Assembly (NCBI GenBank): GCA_000004695.1
Contig: CM000152.2
Location: 5,504,001 to 5,568,000 of the forward strand
Length of the DNA stretch: 64,000 nt
Reading direction: 5' to 3'
Source: Dictyostelium discoideum
Lineage: Eukaryota
Part shown: positions 13,966 to 42,169 of the stretch, one piece after another
Layout of the letters: the number at the start of each line of letters is the position of its first letter
Numbering within the stretch: the first letter of the stretch is position 1
Translations under genes and position numbers: made by a program
Notes under the pieces: generated by a model
What the model saw: the letters and a program-made list of their open reading frames with translations, nothing else
What the model was told of the DNA's origin: nothing
Database searches by the model: none

Positions 13966-14228
13966 TTTTGTTTGGTTAATTTGAAAATAATTGAAAAAAA
14001 AAAAATTTTGAAAAATAAAAAAATAAAAATAAAAAAAAAATTAAATAATGTCATATTTTTTAATTTTACCTTTTAAATGTAATTTCAAATTGTTACTTTT
14101 GATAGCAACAAAACTACCTCGTCAATGAATAAAATTGCCATAGGATTTTAAGATTTTTAATTATTTCATTAATTTGAAAAATGAACTCGGAACGATTTCA
14201 GGCATAAAATTTAAAAAAACATCAAAAT

Positions 14229-14299
14229 GGGAGATTAGTTAAGTGGTATAATGCTACCTTTGGGTGGTAGCGTCCTGAGTTCGATTCTCGGATCTCCCC
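14229..14299 (+). tRNA. tRNA-Pro (anticodon UGG)
   Basis: Sequence: GGGAGATTAGTTAAGTGGTATAATGCTACCTTTGGGTGGTAGCGTCCTGAGTTCGATTCTCGGATCTCCCC. It folds as a cloverleaf: 7-bp acceptor stem, D-arm, anticodon stem CTACC/GGTAG around loop TTTGGGT (anticodon TGG), 4-nt variable loop, T-arm CTGAG-TTCGATT-CTCGG. The anticodon loop is identical to the eukaryotic tRNA-Pro(UGG) loop. Confidence 0.85.
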
Positions 14300-14320
14300 A
14301 AATTTTTTTAGAAAAATGTG

Positions 14321-14343: not shown

Positions 14344-15054
14344 AAAAAATGTGAAACCATCATCAAAAATTCAACAAGATAAATCATCAAACCAATATTT
14401 AATATTCTTTCTTATTAATAATTGGAGATGATATTGATATCCAATTTAATATCAATAATTTAATCAATTTACAAATTATTTATATCAATAGTCAAAAACT
14501 CTGGCTCATTTGGTTTTATTAATAATGGTAAATAACTTTATCTCTGATTTAAAGATAATTAATTAAATCTAATTTAAATTAATTTTACCACAATTAAATC
14601 TGATTTAAATTAATTTTACCACAATTAAATTCAATCTCTTAAGTAGTTTCAATTGATTGAAATATTATTAAAACTATACCTTTGAATTGGGTTTTTATTT
14701 ATTCATTTATTTATTTATCTATTAATTTATTTATTGATAATAAATAGAAAAAAATAAAAGGATAATAATAATAACTGCTTGAATCAAGTTTGATCTTTGG
14801 CTAACGTTTAATGAAGATGAAAACAAAATGATTTATTTTCTACTGAAATGATGTTTTGGGTGGATTAAAAAAAAAAGAAAATAATATTAAAAAAAAAAAA
14901 AAAAAGAAAAATATTTAAAATTTTTGCTAATAAAAAATAATTTTTTTTATTTATTTGCATTATGGTTTCTCGTAATATAAAAAAACAAAAAAAATTGAAT
15001 AATCCATTCAAGAATCGAACATATGATCTCCATATTGTTTTAAATAAATAAGTG

Positions 15055-15125
15055 GGGAGATCCGAGAATCGAACTCAGGACGCTACCACCCAAAGGTAGC
15101 ATTATACCACTTAACTAATCTCCCA
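15055..15125 (-). tRNA. tRNA-Pro (anticodon UGG), second copy, convergent with the first
   Basis: The plus strand is the exact reverse complement of the 14229-14299 tRNA ('GGGGAGATCCGAGAATCGAACTCAGGACGCTACCACCCAAAGGTAGCATTATACCACTTAACTAATCTCCC'). The flanks are also inverted copies. An ex-B-like box lies at 15009-15027 ('CAAGAATCGAACATATGAT'). Confidence 0.85.
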
Positions 15126-15408
15126 TTTTGATGTTTTTTTAAATTTTATGCCCCAAATCCTCTCGAATATTTTTTCAGCTTAACTACCTCGTCAATCAAT
15201 AAAAATTCCATAGGTGGATATTGATCAATAATGTGCCCAATAATTCACCAATCAACAAGTTTAATTACATTCAATAAAAAATAAAATAATAATGGAACTT
15301 AAATACACATTTTTAGCCTCCAAAGCTTAAGAATATCTATTTTACATAAATAACCTGTTTATTTAGATTGATCAAAAAGTTTATTTTTTAATTTATTAAT
15401 ATTCACCG

Positions 15409-28382: not shown

Positions 28383-32679
<4,297 letters not shown>

Positions 32680-32929: not shown

Positions 32930-35307
<2,378 letters not shown>

Positions 35308-36642: not shown

Positions 36643-38909
36643 ATGGAAATTGATAATTTATTTTTTTACTGTTGGAGAAATGTTTATATTAGAGGTTTAA
36701 TATTTAATTTTATTAAAACCAATAAAACAGAATTAATAAATCCAAATTTTGGTATTTACAATTATTATCAAATGAATGATGTAAATTTAATGGCAACAAA
36801 TAAAGGATTAAAGCAATTGTTAGTTGAAAAGGTTGAAAAAAAATATCATTTAAATTTTAATTTTTCAAAATCTGGAATTCCTTTTGAAAATATTTTTAAA
36901 AATTTTAAAAATGAAACTGATAAAGAATTTTTTAATAATCTATTCAAAAATTATCCAAATTATTTTTTATCTTCAATTGATATAACAGCAGAATATTCAA
37001 TGGCCTGTGATTGTGTTGTTGCATTCCAAGTTTTAGTAAATAATTTTAATTATACTCCAATTAATTGTAAACAATTATTTATTGATTCAATTTTAAAAGG
37101 TTCTATCGAAACTTCAAAATTAATAAATGAAAAGTTTAATCCAAAACTAAACCAAATTGATTATGATGAAATTTGGAAATTATTATTAAATAAGAATGTT
37201 GACCTTGTAATAGAAGAAACTATTCCAAATAATGACCCAATTGGTAAAATTAATAAATCAATTGAATATTTAGTAAAAGAATTAAATGCACCCTTACCAC
37301 CACCTATCGATAATAATTCATTTAAATGTTTTATTGATTTTTCAATTAAAAATAGAAATCTTGAATATATTTTATCAACTTGTTATTCAATTTCCTATTT
37401 AAAATCATCTTTGGAATTATTTATTTCTCCATTTCCAAATTTAACCAATTCATTTAAAATTTTAACAATTAAAGAATTGGATGAAATTAAAATGAAATTA
37501 ACTAGACAAGAATTAGAAAGTAATGTACAAGATATTGAAACTAATAATGAAATAATTTCAAAATTAGTTGGAATGGCTTCAAAATTTACAAGTATTAATT
37601 TTTATTTTAATATGGTATTTTATTATCAACATTATGAAAATAATTATATAACTTTAATGAAATTGAAAATCAAAATCAAAATTTATCATTATTTAATGAA
37701 ATTTTAATTGCACATGGTAATTATAAAGGAATAGTTGAAAATGTTGATTTAATGGAACTTGAACCACATCAAAAAGGTAAATCAATTATAATCACTGGTA
37801 AAGAATCATTTAAAATTTTTAGATCATGTAAAAATAATATTGAAAATGTTTTTAAAATAATGGTACAAGATATTATTGATAATTTCACATTTAGAACTAA
37901 ACCATTAACTGAGATTCATTCAGTTTTAGATATTATTAAATTTTTAGCTACTTTTGGTGATACAAAATTAGTTTTAGAATTATTTGCAGAAATTAATAAA
38001 AACTATGTAATAGTTTCAGGGTACCCAAATCAAGCATATTCTCTAGTAACTTCAACTGAAATGTTTGATATTATATTTTTTAAATTTAAAAATGCATTTA
38101 GATTAAATGAAATTTATGATCTTGTTGATTCAAATAATGATAGAACAAATACTTATTTAATTTTAGATCATTTTAAATCAAAATATCCAAATGAATATAA
38201 TAAAGTAGTAGCACATTATAATCCATTGCCAAATCATTTATTAAATGAATTTATTTTCAATAATTTAGAAGAACATAAACAAAAACTAATTGAAAGTGAA
38301 TGTTGGCTAAATAGAGTAAGAAATGGTGTTGTACCATTAGAACATTTTAAAAAACTTTTAGAAATCACTCCAGATGATCAAGAATATCATTGTTTTGAAA
38401 GTAGTGAAATTTTTAATTATGTTTTCAATCAACGTATGCATGATATTGAAAATGGTAGATTTCAATTAACTCAAAGATCAAATTTATTAAATTATTATGT
38501 TACTGGTAAATTAGAAACAACAATTTTAAATTATATTGAAAAACCAATAAATTTTCCAAATTTAAATAGTTGTATAGATTTATTAATTAAATTTAATGAT
38601 TTAATTTCATTGAAATTCATTTTTGATTATTTTAATTTACCAAATTGTTCAAATTATCAAATATTCTTTAAAAATCATTTAATATTGATATCAGAACAAA
38701 ATAATTTACAAGTTTTATCATTTATTTTTCAAAATTATCCAACATTACTAACTCAAGAAAATTTACAATTCTTATTTAATCATTGTTATCAAAAAACTGC
38801 CTCGATTGAAATAATTAATTATATTATTAAATCAATTAGATTTAAACCAAATTTATTAAATTTATATTCTATTCCGATTGTAAAAAATTATTTTAATTTT
38901 TCAAATTAA
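36643..38909 (+). pseudogene. Dictyostelid orphan-family gene, copy A. Frameshifted around 37645-37707 relative to its intact tandem paralog at 39803..42169.
   Basis: Two ORFs, 36643..37707 and 37752..38909. Together they are collinear with the single 788-aa ORF of copy B. 'MEIDNLFFYCWRNVYIRGLIFNFIKTNKT' matches 'ELFFYCWENVYIKKVIFENLKTNKT'. 'IAHGNYKGIVENVDLMELEPHQKGKSIIITGKESFKIFRSCK' matches 'ISHGDYKDLVLNINKL...INGKSIYFLGFESYTLFRSCK'. The second frame is open from about 37644 and overlaps the end of the first. That pattern is an indel signature, not an intron. Confidence 0.5.
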
Positions 38910-39802: not shown

Positions 39803-42169
39803 ATGGAAATAAATAATGGTACATTAAAAAGGAATTCAGAATTATTTTTTTATTGTTGGGAAAATGTTTACATAAAAAAAGTAATTTTTGAAAATTTAAA
39901 AACAAATAAAACTTCAATAATAAACCTATTATATGGAATATATAATTATTTACAATTAAATGATGTTAATACAATTACAACAAATGAAAACTTACATATT
40001 TTATTAATAGATAAAATTAAAAAAACAAGAAATTTAAATTTTAATTTTCCAAAAACCAAGATTCCCTTTGAATTAATTTTCCAAAAGTTTAATTCAAATG
40101 AAACAATTGATTTTTATAAAGATTTATTTAAAAATTATCCAAAGTATTTCCTTTCTTCAATGGATGCAATTTGTGAATATGCAATCAAATGTAATAATAT
40201 AGTTGCAATTCAAGTTTTAATAAAACATTTTTCATTTGTCCCAAATAATAGTAAAGAAATTCTAATAAGTTCAATTTTAAATGGGTCATTCAAAGTTGCA
40301 AGTTTTTTAAAAGAATCTTTTAATATAAACCTTACCAATGAAGATTATAATAAAATATGGAATTATTTATTATACAATGAAAATGTGGAAGGCACAAAAC
40401 AAGAAGCCCATTCAATGTTTGAAGTAATAAAACATAATAAAAATATAAATTTTAATAAAATAAATGATTCAATTGAATATTTAGTAAAAGAATTAAATGC
40501 ACCATTACCATCACCTATTGGTAATAATTCATTTAAATGTTTCATTGATTTTTCAATTAAAAAAAGAAATCTTGAATTTATTTTATCAACTTGTTATTCA
40601 ATTTCATATTTAAAATCATCTTTGGAATTATTTATTTCACCCAATCCAAATTTAACGAATTCAATTAAAATTTTATCAATTAAAGAATTGGATGAAATTA
40701 AAATGAAATTAACTAGACAAGAATTAGAAAGTAATGTACAAGATATTGAAACTAATAATGAAATAATTTCAAAATTAGTTGGAATGGCTTCAAAATTTAC
40801 AAATATTAATTTTAATGTTAATATGAAGTTTTATTATCAACATTATTATTTTAATGAACCACCTAAACAATGGGGAGATTTTTTAACAAATATTTATAAC
40901 TATATTGAAATTTCAATATCACACGGAGATTATAAAGATTTGGTACTAAATATTAATAAACTACCAATTGATCCTACAATTAATGGTAAATCAATTTATT
41001 TTTTGGGTTTCGAATCATACACATTATTTAGATCATGTAAAAGTATAATGAACCAAAAATGTGAAATATTTATTCAAGATGTTGTTAATCATCAATTAGA
41101 TACAACAATTGCACCAGAATTAAAACATTCAATTATTGATGTTATAAAATTTTTTATTACTTTAGGAAATATTGAATTGATTCAACAACTTTTTATACAA
41201 CTAGATTATTTCAATATTCAAATTAATCCATCAAATTTAATATACTCTTTTATTAATTCAACTGAAATGTTTGATTTAATTTATCAAAGATTTAGAGAAA
41301 CATTCAATTTAAATGAAATTTTAGAAATTGTAAATATGTATAATAAGGTTGAAATTAAATATTTAATACTATACCATTTTAAAAACAACTATACCCAAGA
41401 TTATTATCAACAACTTGAAAATTATATACCATGTGTAAATAATTTATTAAATGAATTTATTTTTGAAAATATTCAAGATTTTCAAAATAAATTAATAGAA
41501 TCAAATTTTTGGTCAAATTCTTATGCAATTAAAACTATAAATACCAATCTCCCATTAAAACATTTTAAAAAATTATTAGAAATAACTCCTATTGATCATG
41601 AATATTATCATTGTTTTAATAATTTTGAAAATTTAAAATATGTAATAGATTTTAGAAAACAAGATATAATCAACAATCGTAGATTTTATATACAATTTGA
41701 AAATTCATCAATTTATAATATATATGCATGTGGAATGATGGAAGAAATTTTTGAGGAATGTTTAGAAAAACCAATTAATATCCCAATGGAAAATTTAAAT
41801 AATACATTTGATTTAATGATTAAATCAATTGATTTAAAATCAATTAAATTTATAATTGATTATTTTAATCTAACAAATAATAATACATTTATTCAAAACT
41901 TTAAGGGATGTTTAAATACAATCTCAAAGTTTAACCGAATTGAAGTTTTATCATTCATATACAATAACTATCCAACACTATTATCTCAAAATAATTTACA
42001 ATCATTATTTGAACATTGTTTACAAGTAACAGGTTCAATTGAAATAATTCAATTTTTAATTAAAGATATTAGATTTAAACCAAACCTTGAAAATATTGAT
42101 AAAAATATTAATTTTACAGATAAAACTTTTATAACTAAAAATTATTTTTTAAAATATTTAAATAAATAA
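39803..42169 (+). CDS. Dictyostelid orphan-family protein, copy B (788 aa, intact), with no recognisable domain
   Basis: Single uninterrupted ORF. It is homologous along its length to copy A at roughly 40-50% amino-acid identity. One segment of about 110 residues is nearly identical even at nucleotide level ('SIEYLVKELNAPLP...KELDEIKMKLTRQELESNVQDIETNNEIISKLVGMASKFT'). Confidence 0.7.
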   Translation: MEINNGTLKRNSELFFYCWENVYIKKVIFENLKTNKTSIINLLYGIYNYLQLNDVNTITTNENLHILLIDKIKKTRNLNFNFPKTKIPFELIFQKFNSNETIDFYKDLFKNYPKYFLSSMDAICEYAIKCNNIVAIQVLIKHFSFVPNNSKEILISSILNGSFKVASFLKESFNINLTNEDYNKIWNYLLYNENVEGTKQEAHSMFEVIKHNKNINFNKINDSIEYLVKELNAPLPSPIGNNSFKCFIDFSIKKRNLEFILSTCYSISYLKSSLELFISPNPNLTNSIKILSIKELDEIKMKLTRQELESNVQDIETNNEIISKLVGMASKFTNINFNVNMKFYYQHYYFNEPPKQWGDFLTNIYNYIEISISHGDYKDLVLNINKLPIDPTINGKSIYFLGFESYTLFRSCKSIMNQKCEIFIQDVVNHQLDTTIAPELKHSIIDVIKFFITLGNIELIQQLFIQLDYFNIQINPSNLIYSFINSTEMFDLIYQRFRETFNLNEILEIVNMYNKVEIKYLILYHFKNNYTQDYYQQLENYIPCVNNLLNEFIFENIQDFQNKLIESNFWSNSYAIKTINTNLPLKHFKKLLEITPIDHEYYHCFNNFENLKYVIDFRKQDIINNRRFYIQFENSSIYNIYACGMMEEIFEECLEKPINIPMENLNNTFDLMIKSIDLKSIKFIIDYFNLTNNNTFIQNFKGCLNTISKFNRIEVLSFIYNNYPTLLSQNNLQSLFEHCLQVTGSIEIIQFLIKDIRFKPNLENIDKNINFTDKTFITKNYFLKYLNK

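Follow-up and report, generated by a model that had tools for sequence, protein, structure and literature searches.

Two adjacent genes of the social amoeba Dictyostelium discoideum AX4, DDB_G0282225 (copy A) and DDB_G0282227 (copy B), lie in direct tandem in a 64,000-nucleotide (nt) stretch of nuclear DNA (contig CM000152.2, positions 5,504,001 to 5,568,000; here called the window) and share one nearly identical segment within coding sequences that are otherwise well diverged. From comparison of this locus among Dictyostelium genomes, we consider it very likely that the segment is an island of concerted evolution, kept by repeated interlocus (nonallelic) gene conversion between the two paralogs, which are 3.2 kb apart. 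Outside the island, A and B have diverged independently since the species split. Within it, the copies were rehomogenized after speciation, at least in the lineages of D. firmibasis and D. dimigraforme and within the D. discoideum complex. The initial annotation of the window, made from its sequence alone, had suggested a recent nonreciprocal exchange; exchange is supported by a drop in synonymous divergence, by trees, by shared changes, and by GENECONV-type tests, but it recurred in several lineages and was not one recent event.

The near-identical segment of copies A and B

Copy A occupies positions 36643-38909 and copy B (Q54ST9) positions 39803-42169, both on the plus strand. B is an intact, intronless open reading frame (ORF) of 788 amino acids (aa). 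A is also intronless; the absence of one T after position 37650 splits it in the window into two ORFs (36643-37707 and 37752-38909), and with that T restored, it is an intact ORF of 755 aa. Global alignment of A with B gave 47 to 75% identity in 60-nt windows everywhere but in one block of 83 to 100%. Equivalent positions in this block are separated by 3211 bp. In ungapped register at that offset, 30-nt blocks scored 17/30 before 37258, then 30, 26, 29, 28, 29, 26, 27, 30, 30, 30, 30, 24, and 24, and finally 8/30 from 37648. The jump from 17 to 30 at 37258 and the drop from 24 to 8 at 37648 indicate that both edges are abrupt.

A maximum-likelihood two-rate change-point analysis placed the homogenized tract at 37258-37635 in A and 40469-40846 in B (plus strand), with 95.1% identity inside and 63.8% outside and a log-likelihood gain of 90. 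A direct count over its 378 nt gave 357 matches (94.4%); the 21 differences comprise 7 synonymous and 14 nonsynonymous changes. The tract is in frame, encodes roughly SIEYL...FYYQHY, and corresponds to B residues 223 to 348. A repeat search recovered the A/B pair independently (94% identity, spacing of 3211), and no third copy of the tract was found within the window. The core, 37258-37602, is homogenized in most of the nine genomes described below, while in D. citrinum and D. dimigraforme the homogenized sequence begins later, at 37311-37330. The 3′ part, 37592-37635, is a shoulder of lower identity (38/44), which the change-point analysis takes in for some genomes only, and 37603-37635 includes sites that remain A or B specific.

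The longest exact match between A and B in AX4 is a plus-strand run of 126 nt (37466-37591 in A, 40677-40802 in B); in 1,000 permutations of the alignment columns, the longest run was never above 38. Small islands of divergence persist inside the tract at 37432-37453 (plus strand), where positions 37432-37433 specify Phe in A and Asn in B and position 37453 specifies Phe in A and Ile in B. These positions, together with 37603, 37615, and 37617, are fixed A/B differences in all five genomes of the D. discoideum complex.

The initial annotation had thus described the segment well in most respects. A near-identical tract between diverged tandem paralogs is borne out by 357/378 matches inside against about 64% identity outside, and the block scores agree with its abrupt boundaries. 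The uninterrupted run that it had put at about 125 nt extends 5 nt beyond the quoted string at the 5′ end. Its coordinates (37255-37600 and 40468-40812) are off by no more than a few bases on the 5′ side; on the 3′ side, they are adjoined by the shoulder.

Three further features of the tract were recorded. A Pro-rich patch of the CCA/TCA type (37293-37311 in A and 40504-40522 in B, plus strand) is an indel hotspot; it shows length differences of up to about 15 codons among strains and species, as well as between the two copies, and resembles a coding microsatellite (also in L001 to L008, the loci of the other species and strains). G+C content at third codon positions (GC3) was lower in the tract than elsewhere in the genes in all 18 sequences (means of 0.079 and 0.184), opposite to the prediction of GC-biased gene conversion; overall GC was about equal. 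The low GC3 may stem from amino acid or codon composition or from a conversion bias that is absent or reversed in an AT-rich genome. In the AlphaFold model of B, the tract coincides with a confidently predicted helical module (residues ~217 to 347) between low-confidence regions (192 to 216 and 348 to 414), a coincidence that is partly circular because model confidence tracks alignment conservation.

Evidence for exchange between the copies in nine genomes

A protein search matched only A or B orthologs in other Dictyostelium assemblies. We compared AX4 with D. firmibasis (L001), D. citrinum (L003 and L008), D. dimigraforme (L004), D. cf. discoideum (L002 and L006), and further D. discoideum lineages (L005 and L007). 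These eight assemblies, from five named species or lineages, make up the nine genomes together with AX4, and an AX4-like assembly (L009) brings the number of assemblies to ten. All ten carry exactly one A and one B, in tandem and in the same order, and synteny is kept, the pair being preceded by a KBP_C-domain gene and followed by a PH/FHA gene on the opposite strand. Since every locus has one A and one B in conserved order, the duplication is older than these species and had occurred before D. firmibasis, D. dimigraforme, D. citrinum, and the D. discoideum complex separated.

Two observations concern the assemblies themselves. The B gene models of L005 (7800-8001), L006 (7800-8001), and L007 (11100-11304) begin at an internal ATG and give proteins of 729 to 733 aa. 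We rejected the idea that B is damaged in these three assemblies with short N termini; the upstream frame is open to the AX4 start codon, and the shorter models reflect the annotators' choice. L005 and L007, although labeled D. discoideum, are, in comparison with window positions 26000-50000, about 8 to 10% different from AX4 over the whole 18-kb locus and not just in A and B (synonymous p-distance of about 0.09 in A/B) and are lineages quite divergent from the laboratory strain.

The 18 genes (A and B from nine genomes) were placed in a protein-guided codon alignment, synonymous p-distances were calculated by the Nei-Gojobori method, and neighbor-joining trees were built with bootstrapping. 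Because the genes are intronless, synonymous sites served as the neutral yardstick. The island was present at nearly identical alignment columns in 9/9 genomes, with 91 to 97% identity inside versus 61 to 64% outside (log-likelihood gains of 53 to 109), and exact A/B runs of 126 to 146 nt occurred. Within a genome, the A-B synonymous p-distance was 0.10 to 0.29 in the tract and 0.44 to 0.64 in the flanks, synonymous divergence being 4- to 6-fold lower inside than outside, and a sliding window showed a single trough of 0.06 to 0.15 over the tract. Synonymous divergence between orthologs was not correspondingly reduced. Between AX4 and D. firmibasis, it was 0.41 in both tract and flanks for A and 0.38 in the tract versus 0.54 in the flanks for B; between AX4 and L007, the tract gave 0.10 to 0.14 and the flanks 0.09. 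Silent positions within the tract are therefore free to change, and they do so jointly in both copies of a genome.

Trees and distances for the tract and the flanks gave different histories. In the flanks, all A-B synonymous distances were at least 0.42, orthologs were closer than paralogs, and both flank trees split the A copies from the B copies as two clades, each with 100% bootstrap support and the same species order. In the tract, D. firmibasis A and B were 0.16 apart, compared to 0.36 to 0.45 from every other sequence, and grouped together at 100% bootstrap; D. dimigraforme A and B were 0.10 apart, compared to 0.21 or more from other sequences, and grouped together at 99.5%. Only 1 of 366 ungapped tract columns was a fixed A/B-diagnostic site, versus 122 of 1713 flank columns.

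Derived changes were also shared between the copies of one species. Lineage-specific bases common to A and B numbered 24 in the D. firmibasis tract and 11 in that of D. dimigraforme, while the much longer flanks held 14 and 1, respectively. Position 37505 of AX4 A and position 40716 of AX4 B are both G (codon AGA, Arg), a base absent from 16/16 other sequences, which encode Lys or another residue. This AX4-specific Lys-to-Arg substitution sits inside the 126-nt exact run, which is probably the most recent subtract and reflects a further conversion in the AX4 lineage. In close comparisons, moreover, divergence within A or within B was greater in the tract than in the flanks, as expected if conversion shuttles variants between copies.

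We weighed these results against one ancient exchange, or a mosaic make-up of one of the genes, dating from before the species split and followed by strong purifying selection on the protein. Such a history would suit the constant position of the island in all genomes, as well as the lower nonsynonymous p-distance between AX4 and D. firmibasis in the tract (0.096 to 0.106, versus 0.156 to 0.220 in the flanks). However, it predicts separate A and B clades for the tract and A-B distances no smaller than those between species. The distances within D. firmibasis and D. dimigraforme contradict this, as do their strongly supported species-wise clades, the sites that each lineage shares between its two copies, and the AX4 substitution lacking in other D. 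discoideum genomes. We therefore regard a single old exchange as very improbable.

Parallel selection alone, in which the same amino acid changes were fixed independently in A and B (for mutual or common-partner binding) without transfer of DNA, fares about equally poorly. The shared lineage changes are mostly nonsynonymous (17/24 in D. firmibasis and 9/11 in D. dimigraforme), and the helical module that AlphaFold predicts for the tract (B residues ~217 to 347, between low-confidence linkers) would also fit such selection. However, the remaining shared derived changes (7/24 and 2/11) are synonymous, A-B synonymous divergence collapses in the tract, and nucleotide runs of 126 to 146 nt are exact; parallel selection would yield none of the three. 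Selection for sameness may nevertheless act on top of conversion.

Permutation tests of the GENECONV type agreed with exchange. With polymorphic sites permuted, the longest matching run was 16 to 53 sites, compared to a permutation mean of 8 to 10, and was significant in all nine genomes (P ≤ 4e-4 in 9/9). For AX4, at sites polymorphic across the 18 sequences, the matching run was 51 versus a permutation maximum of 20 (P < 1e-4). The longest fragments had different end-points and occupied different portions of the tract from genome to genome, at 37467-37591 in AX4, 37275-37353 in L006, 37279-37405 in L002, 37293-37398 in D. dimigraforme, and 37313-37443 in D. firmibasis.

The initial annotation had offered nucleotide-level constraint as an alternative, that is, an RNA structure or a regulatory or other functional element embedded in both coding regions. 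The tract is the best-conserved portion of the A/B alignment, some mid-range ortholog synonymous distances are lower there (0.23 versus 0.33 to 0.36), and RNAalifold on the 18 sequences returned weak consensus folds of -14 and -20 kcal/mol over 430 columns. Control coding segments, however, gave comparable alifold z-scores under column shuffling. Ortholog synonymous distances in the tract were 0.38 to 0.41 for AX4 versus D. firmibasis and 0.10 to 0.20 for close lineages, equaling or exceeding those of the flanks and amounting to 2 to 4 times the A-B distance within a genome. An Rfam scan of the whole window found the two tRNA-Pro genes only, with no match in the tract, and the tract folded no better than shuffled sequence (z = -1.43 on the plus strand and -0.53 on the minus strand). 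Constraint also gives no account of derived substitutions, including synonymous ones, that are shared by A and B of one species or of the species-wise tree. We consider this alternative highly implausible.

We give almost no credence to collapsed or mixed paralog reads in the AX4 reference, since, although the 2005 reference most likely has at least one error in copy A (the T absent after 37650), the independent chromosome-level AX4-like assembly L009 is identical base for base over both genes save for one extra T, and eight more assemblies, from other strains and species, show the same island.

These results carry the usual marks of interlocus gene conversion, with independent events repeated in a single zone. 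They require a minimum of one episode in D. firmibasis, one in D. dimigraforme, and at least one in the D. discoideum complex, with probably one more in the AX4 lineage. Conversion in D. citrinum is older or more limited, and its homogeneous core is shorter (37330-37590). Surviving A- or B-specific sites in the island indicate either that selection retains them or that conversion patches are short.

Confinement of the island and comparison with known systems

We propose that a lesion in one copy would be repaired by homologous use of the other copy as a template, without crossover. Unequal crossing-over is not needed, since copy number is two everywhere, and for the same reason no crossover is inferred. 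The limits of the island coincide with two features of the alignment. Directly 5′ of the tract, every B has an 8-codon insertion relative to every A; directly 3′ of it, past FYYQHY, A and B can be aligned only with gaps and are rich in indels. Both bracketing features are common to all species and are therefore ancient. Recombination requires a near-identical stretch, and heterologies and mismatches block heteroduplex extension. The ancient heterologies and the ~64% identical flanks would stop a heteroduplex from spreading outward, while each conversion would renew the identity that enables the next one, giving a self-perpetuating island with the same limits in every lineage. Somewhat stronger constraint on the protein in this segment would help keep it convertible.

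Homogenization may itself be selected, if the helical module of ~125 residues (B ~223 to 348) is a shared interaction surface for pairing between A and B or for a common partner; we think this rather unlikely. The conservation of boundaries across species, the many shared nonsynonymous lineage changes, and the match between the tract and a discrete predicted module would all fit it, but an island that is mechanically confined and self-perpetuating would be expected to show all three just as well. If homogenization were selected, conversion would be the route by which A and B coevolve in the module, and the helical-repeat parts on their N- and C-terminal sides would specialize.

Several points weigh against recurrent conversion. 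The whole case is comparative, built without a directly observed conversion event. The tract lacks the GC enrichment often cited for conversion (GC3 of 0.079 versus 0.184 in the flanks). Such enrichment is a supportive rather than a defining feature of the process and may not apply in a very AT-rich genome. In D. citrinum, the A-B synonymous distance of the tract (0.23 to 0.29) is not below the distance between species. Copies from the D. discoideum complex mix in one group of the tract tree, where A and B are weakly separated (69% and 41% bootstrap); homogenization there is therefore patchy. The sequence shared by the two copies in the AX4 event is 1 base from the A copies of other strains and 2 to 5 bases from their B copies, and the direction of transfer is not resolvable. 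Finally, the barriers at the boundaries are ones that we infer.

Long-lasting mosaic concerted evolution with conserved boundaries has been described for the mammalian two-copy pairs BMP8A/B, DDX19A/B, and TUBG1/2 (Carson & Scherer 2009; PMC2720389). As in those pairs, A and B are two linked paralogs in each species in which one internal segment is homogenized between conserved boundaries. Here too, paralogs of one species resemble each other more than orthologs of different species do, exchange is supported by GENECONV-type tests, the ratio of nonsynonymous to synonymous divergence (dN/dS) is lower in the converted part, and recurrence is long (PMC2720389). Unlike the mammalian pairs, the Dictyostelium genes are intronless, so that synonymous sites take the place of introns; they lie 3.2 kb apart, their tract is not GC enriched but has lower GC3, and their host is a social amoeba.

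In D. discoideum itself, tgrB paralogs intermingle within clades, a pattern that has been read as interlocus conversion or recombination (bioRxiv 10.1101/2025.10.22.684067). The organism is the same here. However, exchange is discussed in that paper as a source of diversity in the highly polymorphic tgrB kin recognition genes, whereas conversion between A and B homogenizes one module of a diverged two-gene pair, and the whole A/B locus, unlike tgrB, shows ordinary divergence between lineages (about 90 to 92% identity over 18 kb). Islands of divergence that persist in conversion tracts, together with raised within-gene variation, are reported for Tigriopus GOT1 paralogs (PMC3728101) and Caenorhabditis paralogs (PMC3966223). 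A and B resemble them in the A- and B-specific sites that survive (37432-37433, 37453, 37603, and 37615-37617) and in the variation within each gene, which close comparisons show to be raised in the tract.

The A/B island is a clean new example of a well-known process and involves no new mechanism. It offers a well-controlled case in a social amoeba: the genes lack introns, each of the ten assemblies carries two copies, and the flanks act as an internal control. The locus could be used to measure the tract length, rate, and base composition bias of ectopic conversion in an extremely AT-rich genome. Trees or dN/dS values for A and B, or for similar Dictyostelium pairs, will mislead unless the tract is masked.

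Encoded proteins, the AX4 reference, and neighboring features

The window has ~20% G+C, and its ORFs are rich in poly-Asn and poly-Gln runs. Exact protein matches identified one of its ORFs as DDB_G0282225 and another as DDB_G0282227 of D. discoideum AX4, the source of this nuclear DNA. A and B are members of a family of all-helical repeat proteins (~700 to 890 aa) that is restricted to Dictyostelium. In Pfam searches with A and B, ankyrin repeats scored only below threshold (Ank_2, E = 5e-4, 21 bits versus a cutoff of 27.3, in B only, at residues 120 to 178), and an A/B profile search reached true ankyrin proteins via the C-terminal part. A remote-homologue profile search of the full library returned only distant Dictyostelium-restricted paralogs, such as DDB_G0270810 and DDB_G0289685 of D. 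discoideum, with identity no higher than about 31%; we rejected these distant family members as conversion donors because they are too diverged. The AlphaFold model of B is of moderate quality (predicted local distance difference test [pLDDT] score of 64), and a Foldseek search of PDB with it gave nothing significant, just generic alpha-solenoids with template modeling (TM) scores below 0.25. A literature search on the identifiers of both genes found no paper mentioning either in the library searched.

The T absent from copy A corresponds to a 1-bp deficit of the AX4 reference at 37650-37651 (plus strand), where it reads AATTATATA-ACTTT, compared to AATTATATATACTTT elsewhere. The site lies in a TATATA run, 15 nt downstream of where the tract ends. 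In the public AX4 protein (707 aa), about 37593-37734 is treated as an intron, which restores the frame. The T is present in L009 and in all other strains, where the ORF runs uninterrupted for 755 to 760 aa; the frameshift in copy A is therefore most likely a reference error, with the intron an annotation workaround, and the AX4 annotation of DDB_G0282225 needs correction.

Upstream of copy A, ORF fragments at 33313-35307 belong to an intron-containing KBP_C-domain gene, as judged by synteny with L001 to L008. The adjoining ORFs at 28383-32679 contain very long poly-Asn, poly-Gln, (Glu-Lys)n, and poly-Thr runs, typical of Dictyostelium. Farther away, the two tRNA-Pro(UGG) genes, at 14229-14299 (plus strand) and 15054-15124 (minus strand), lie within the 138-nt arms of an inverted repeat (14178-14315 and 15038-15175). 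The arms are 89% complementary and have 722 nt between them, and the position of the two genes in these arms indicates an inverted duplication of a tRNA gene plus its flanks.

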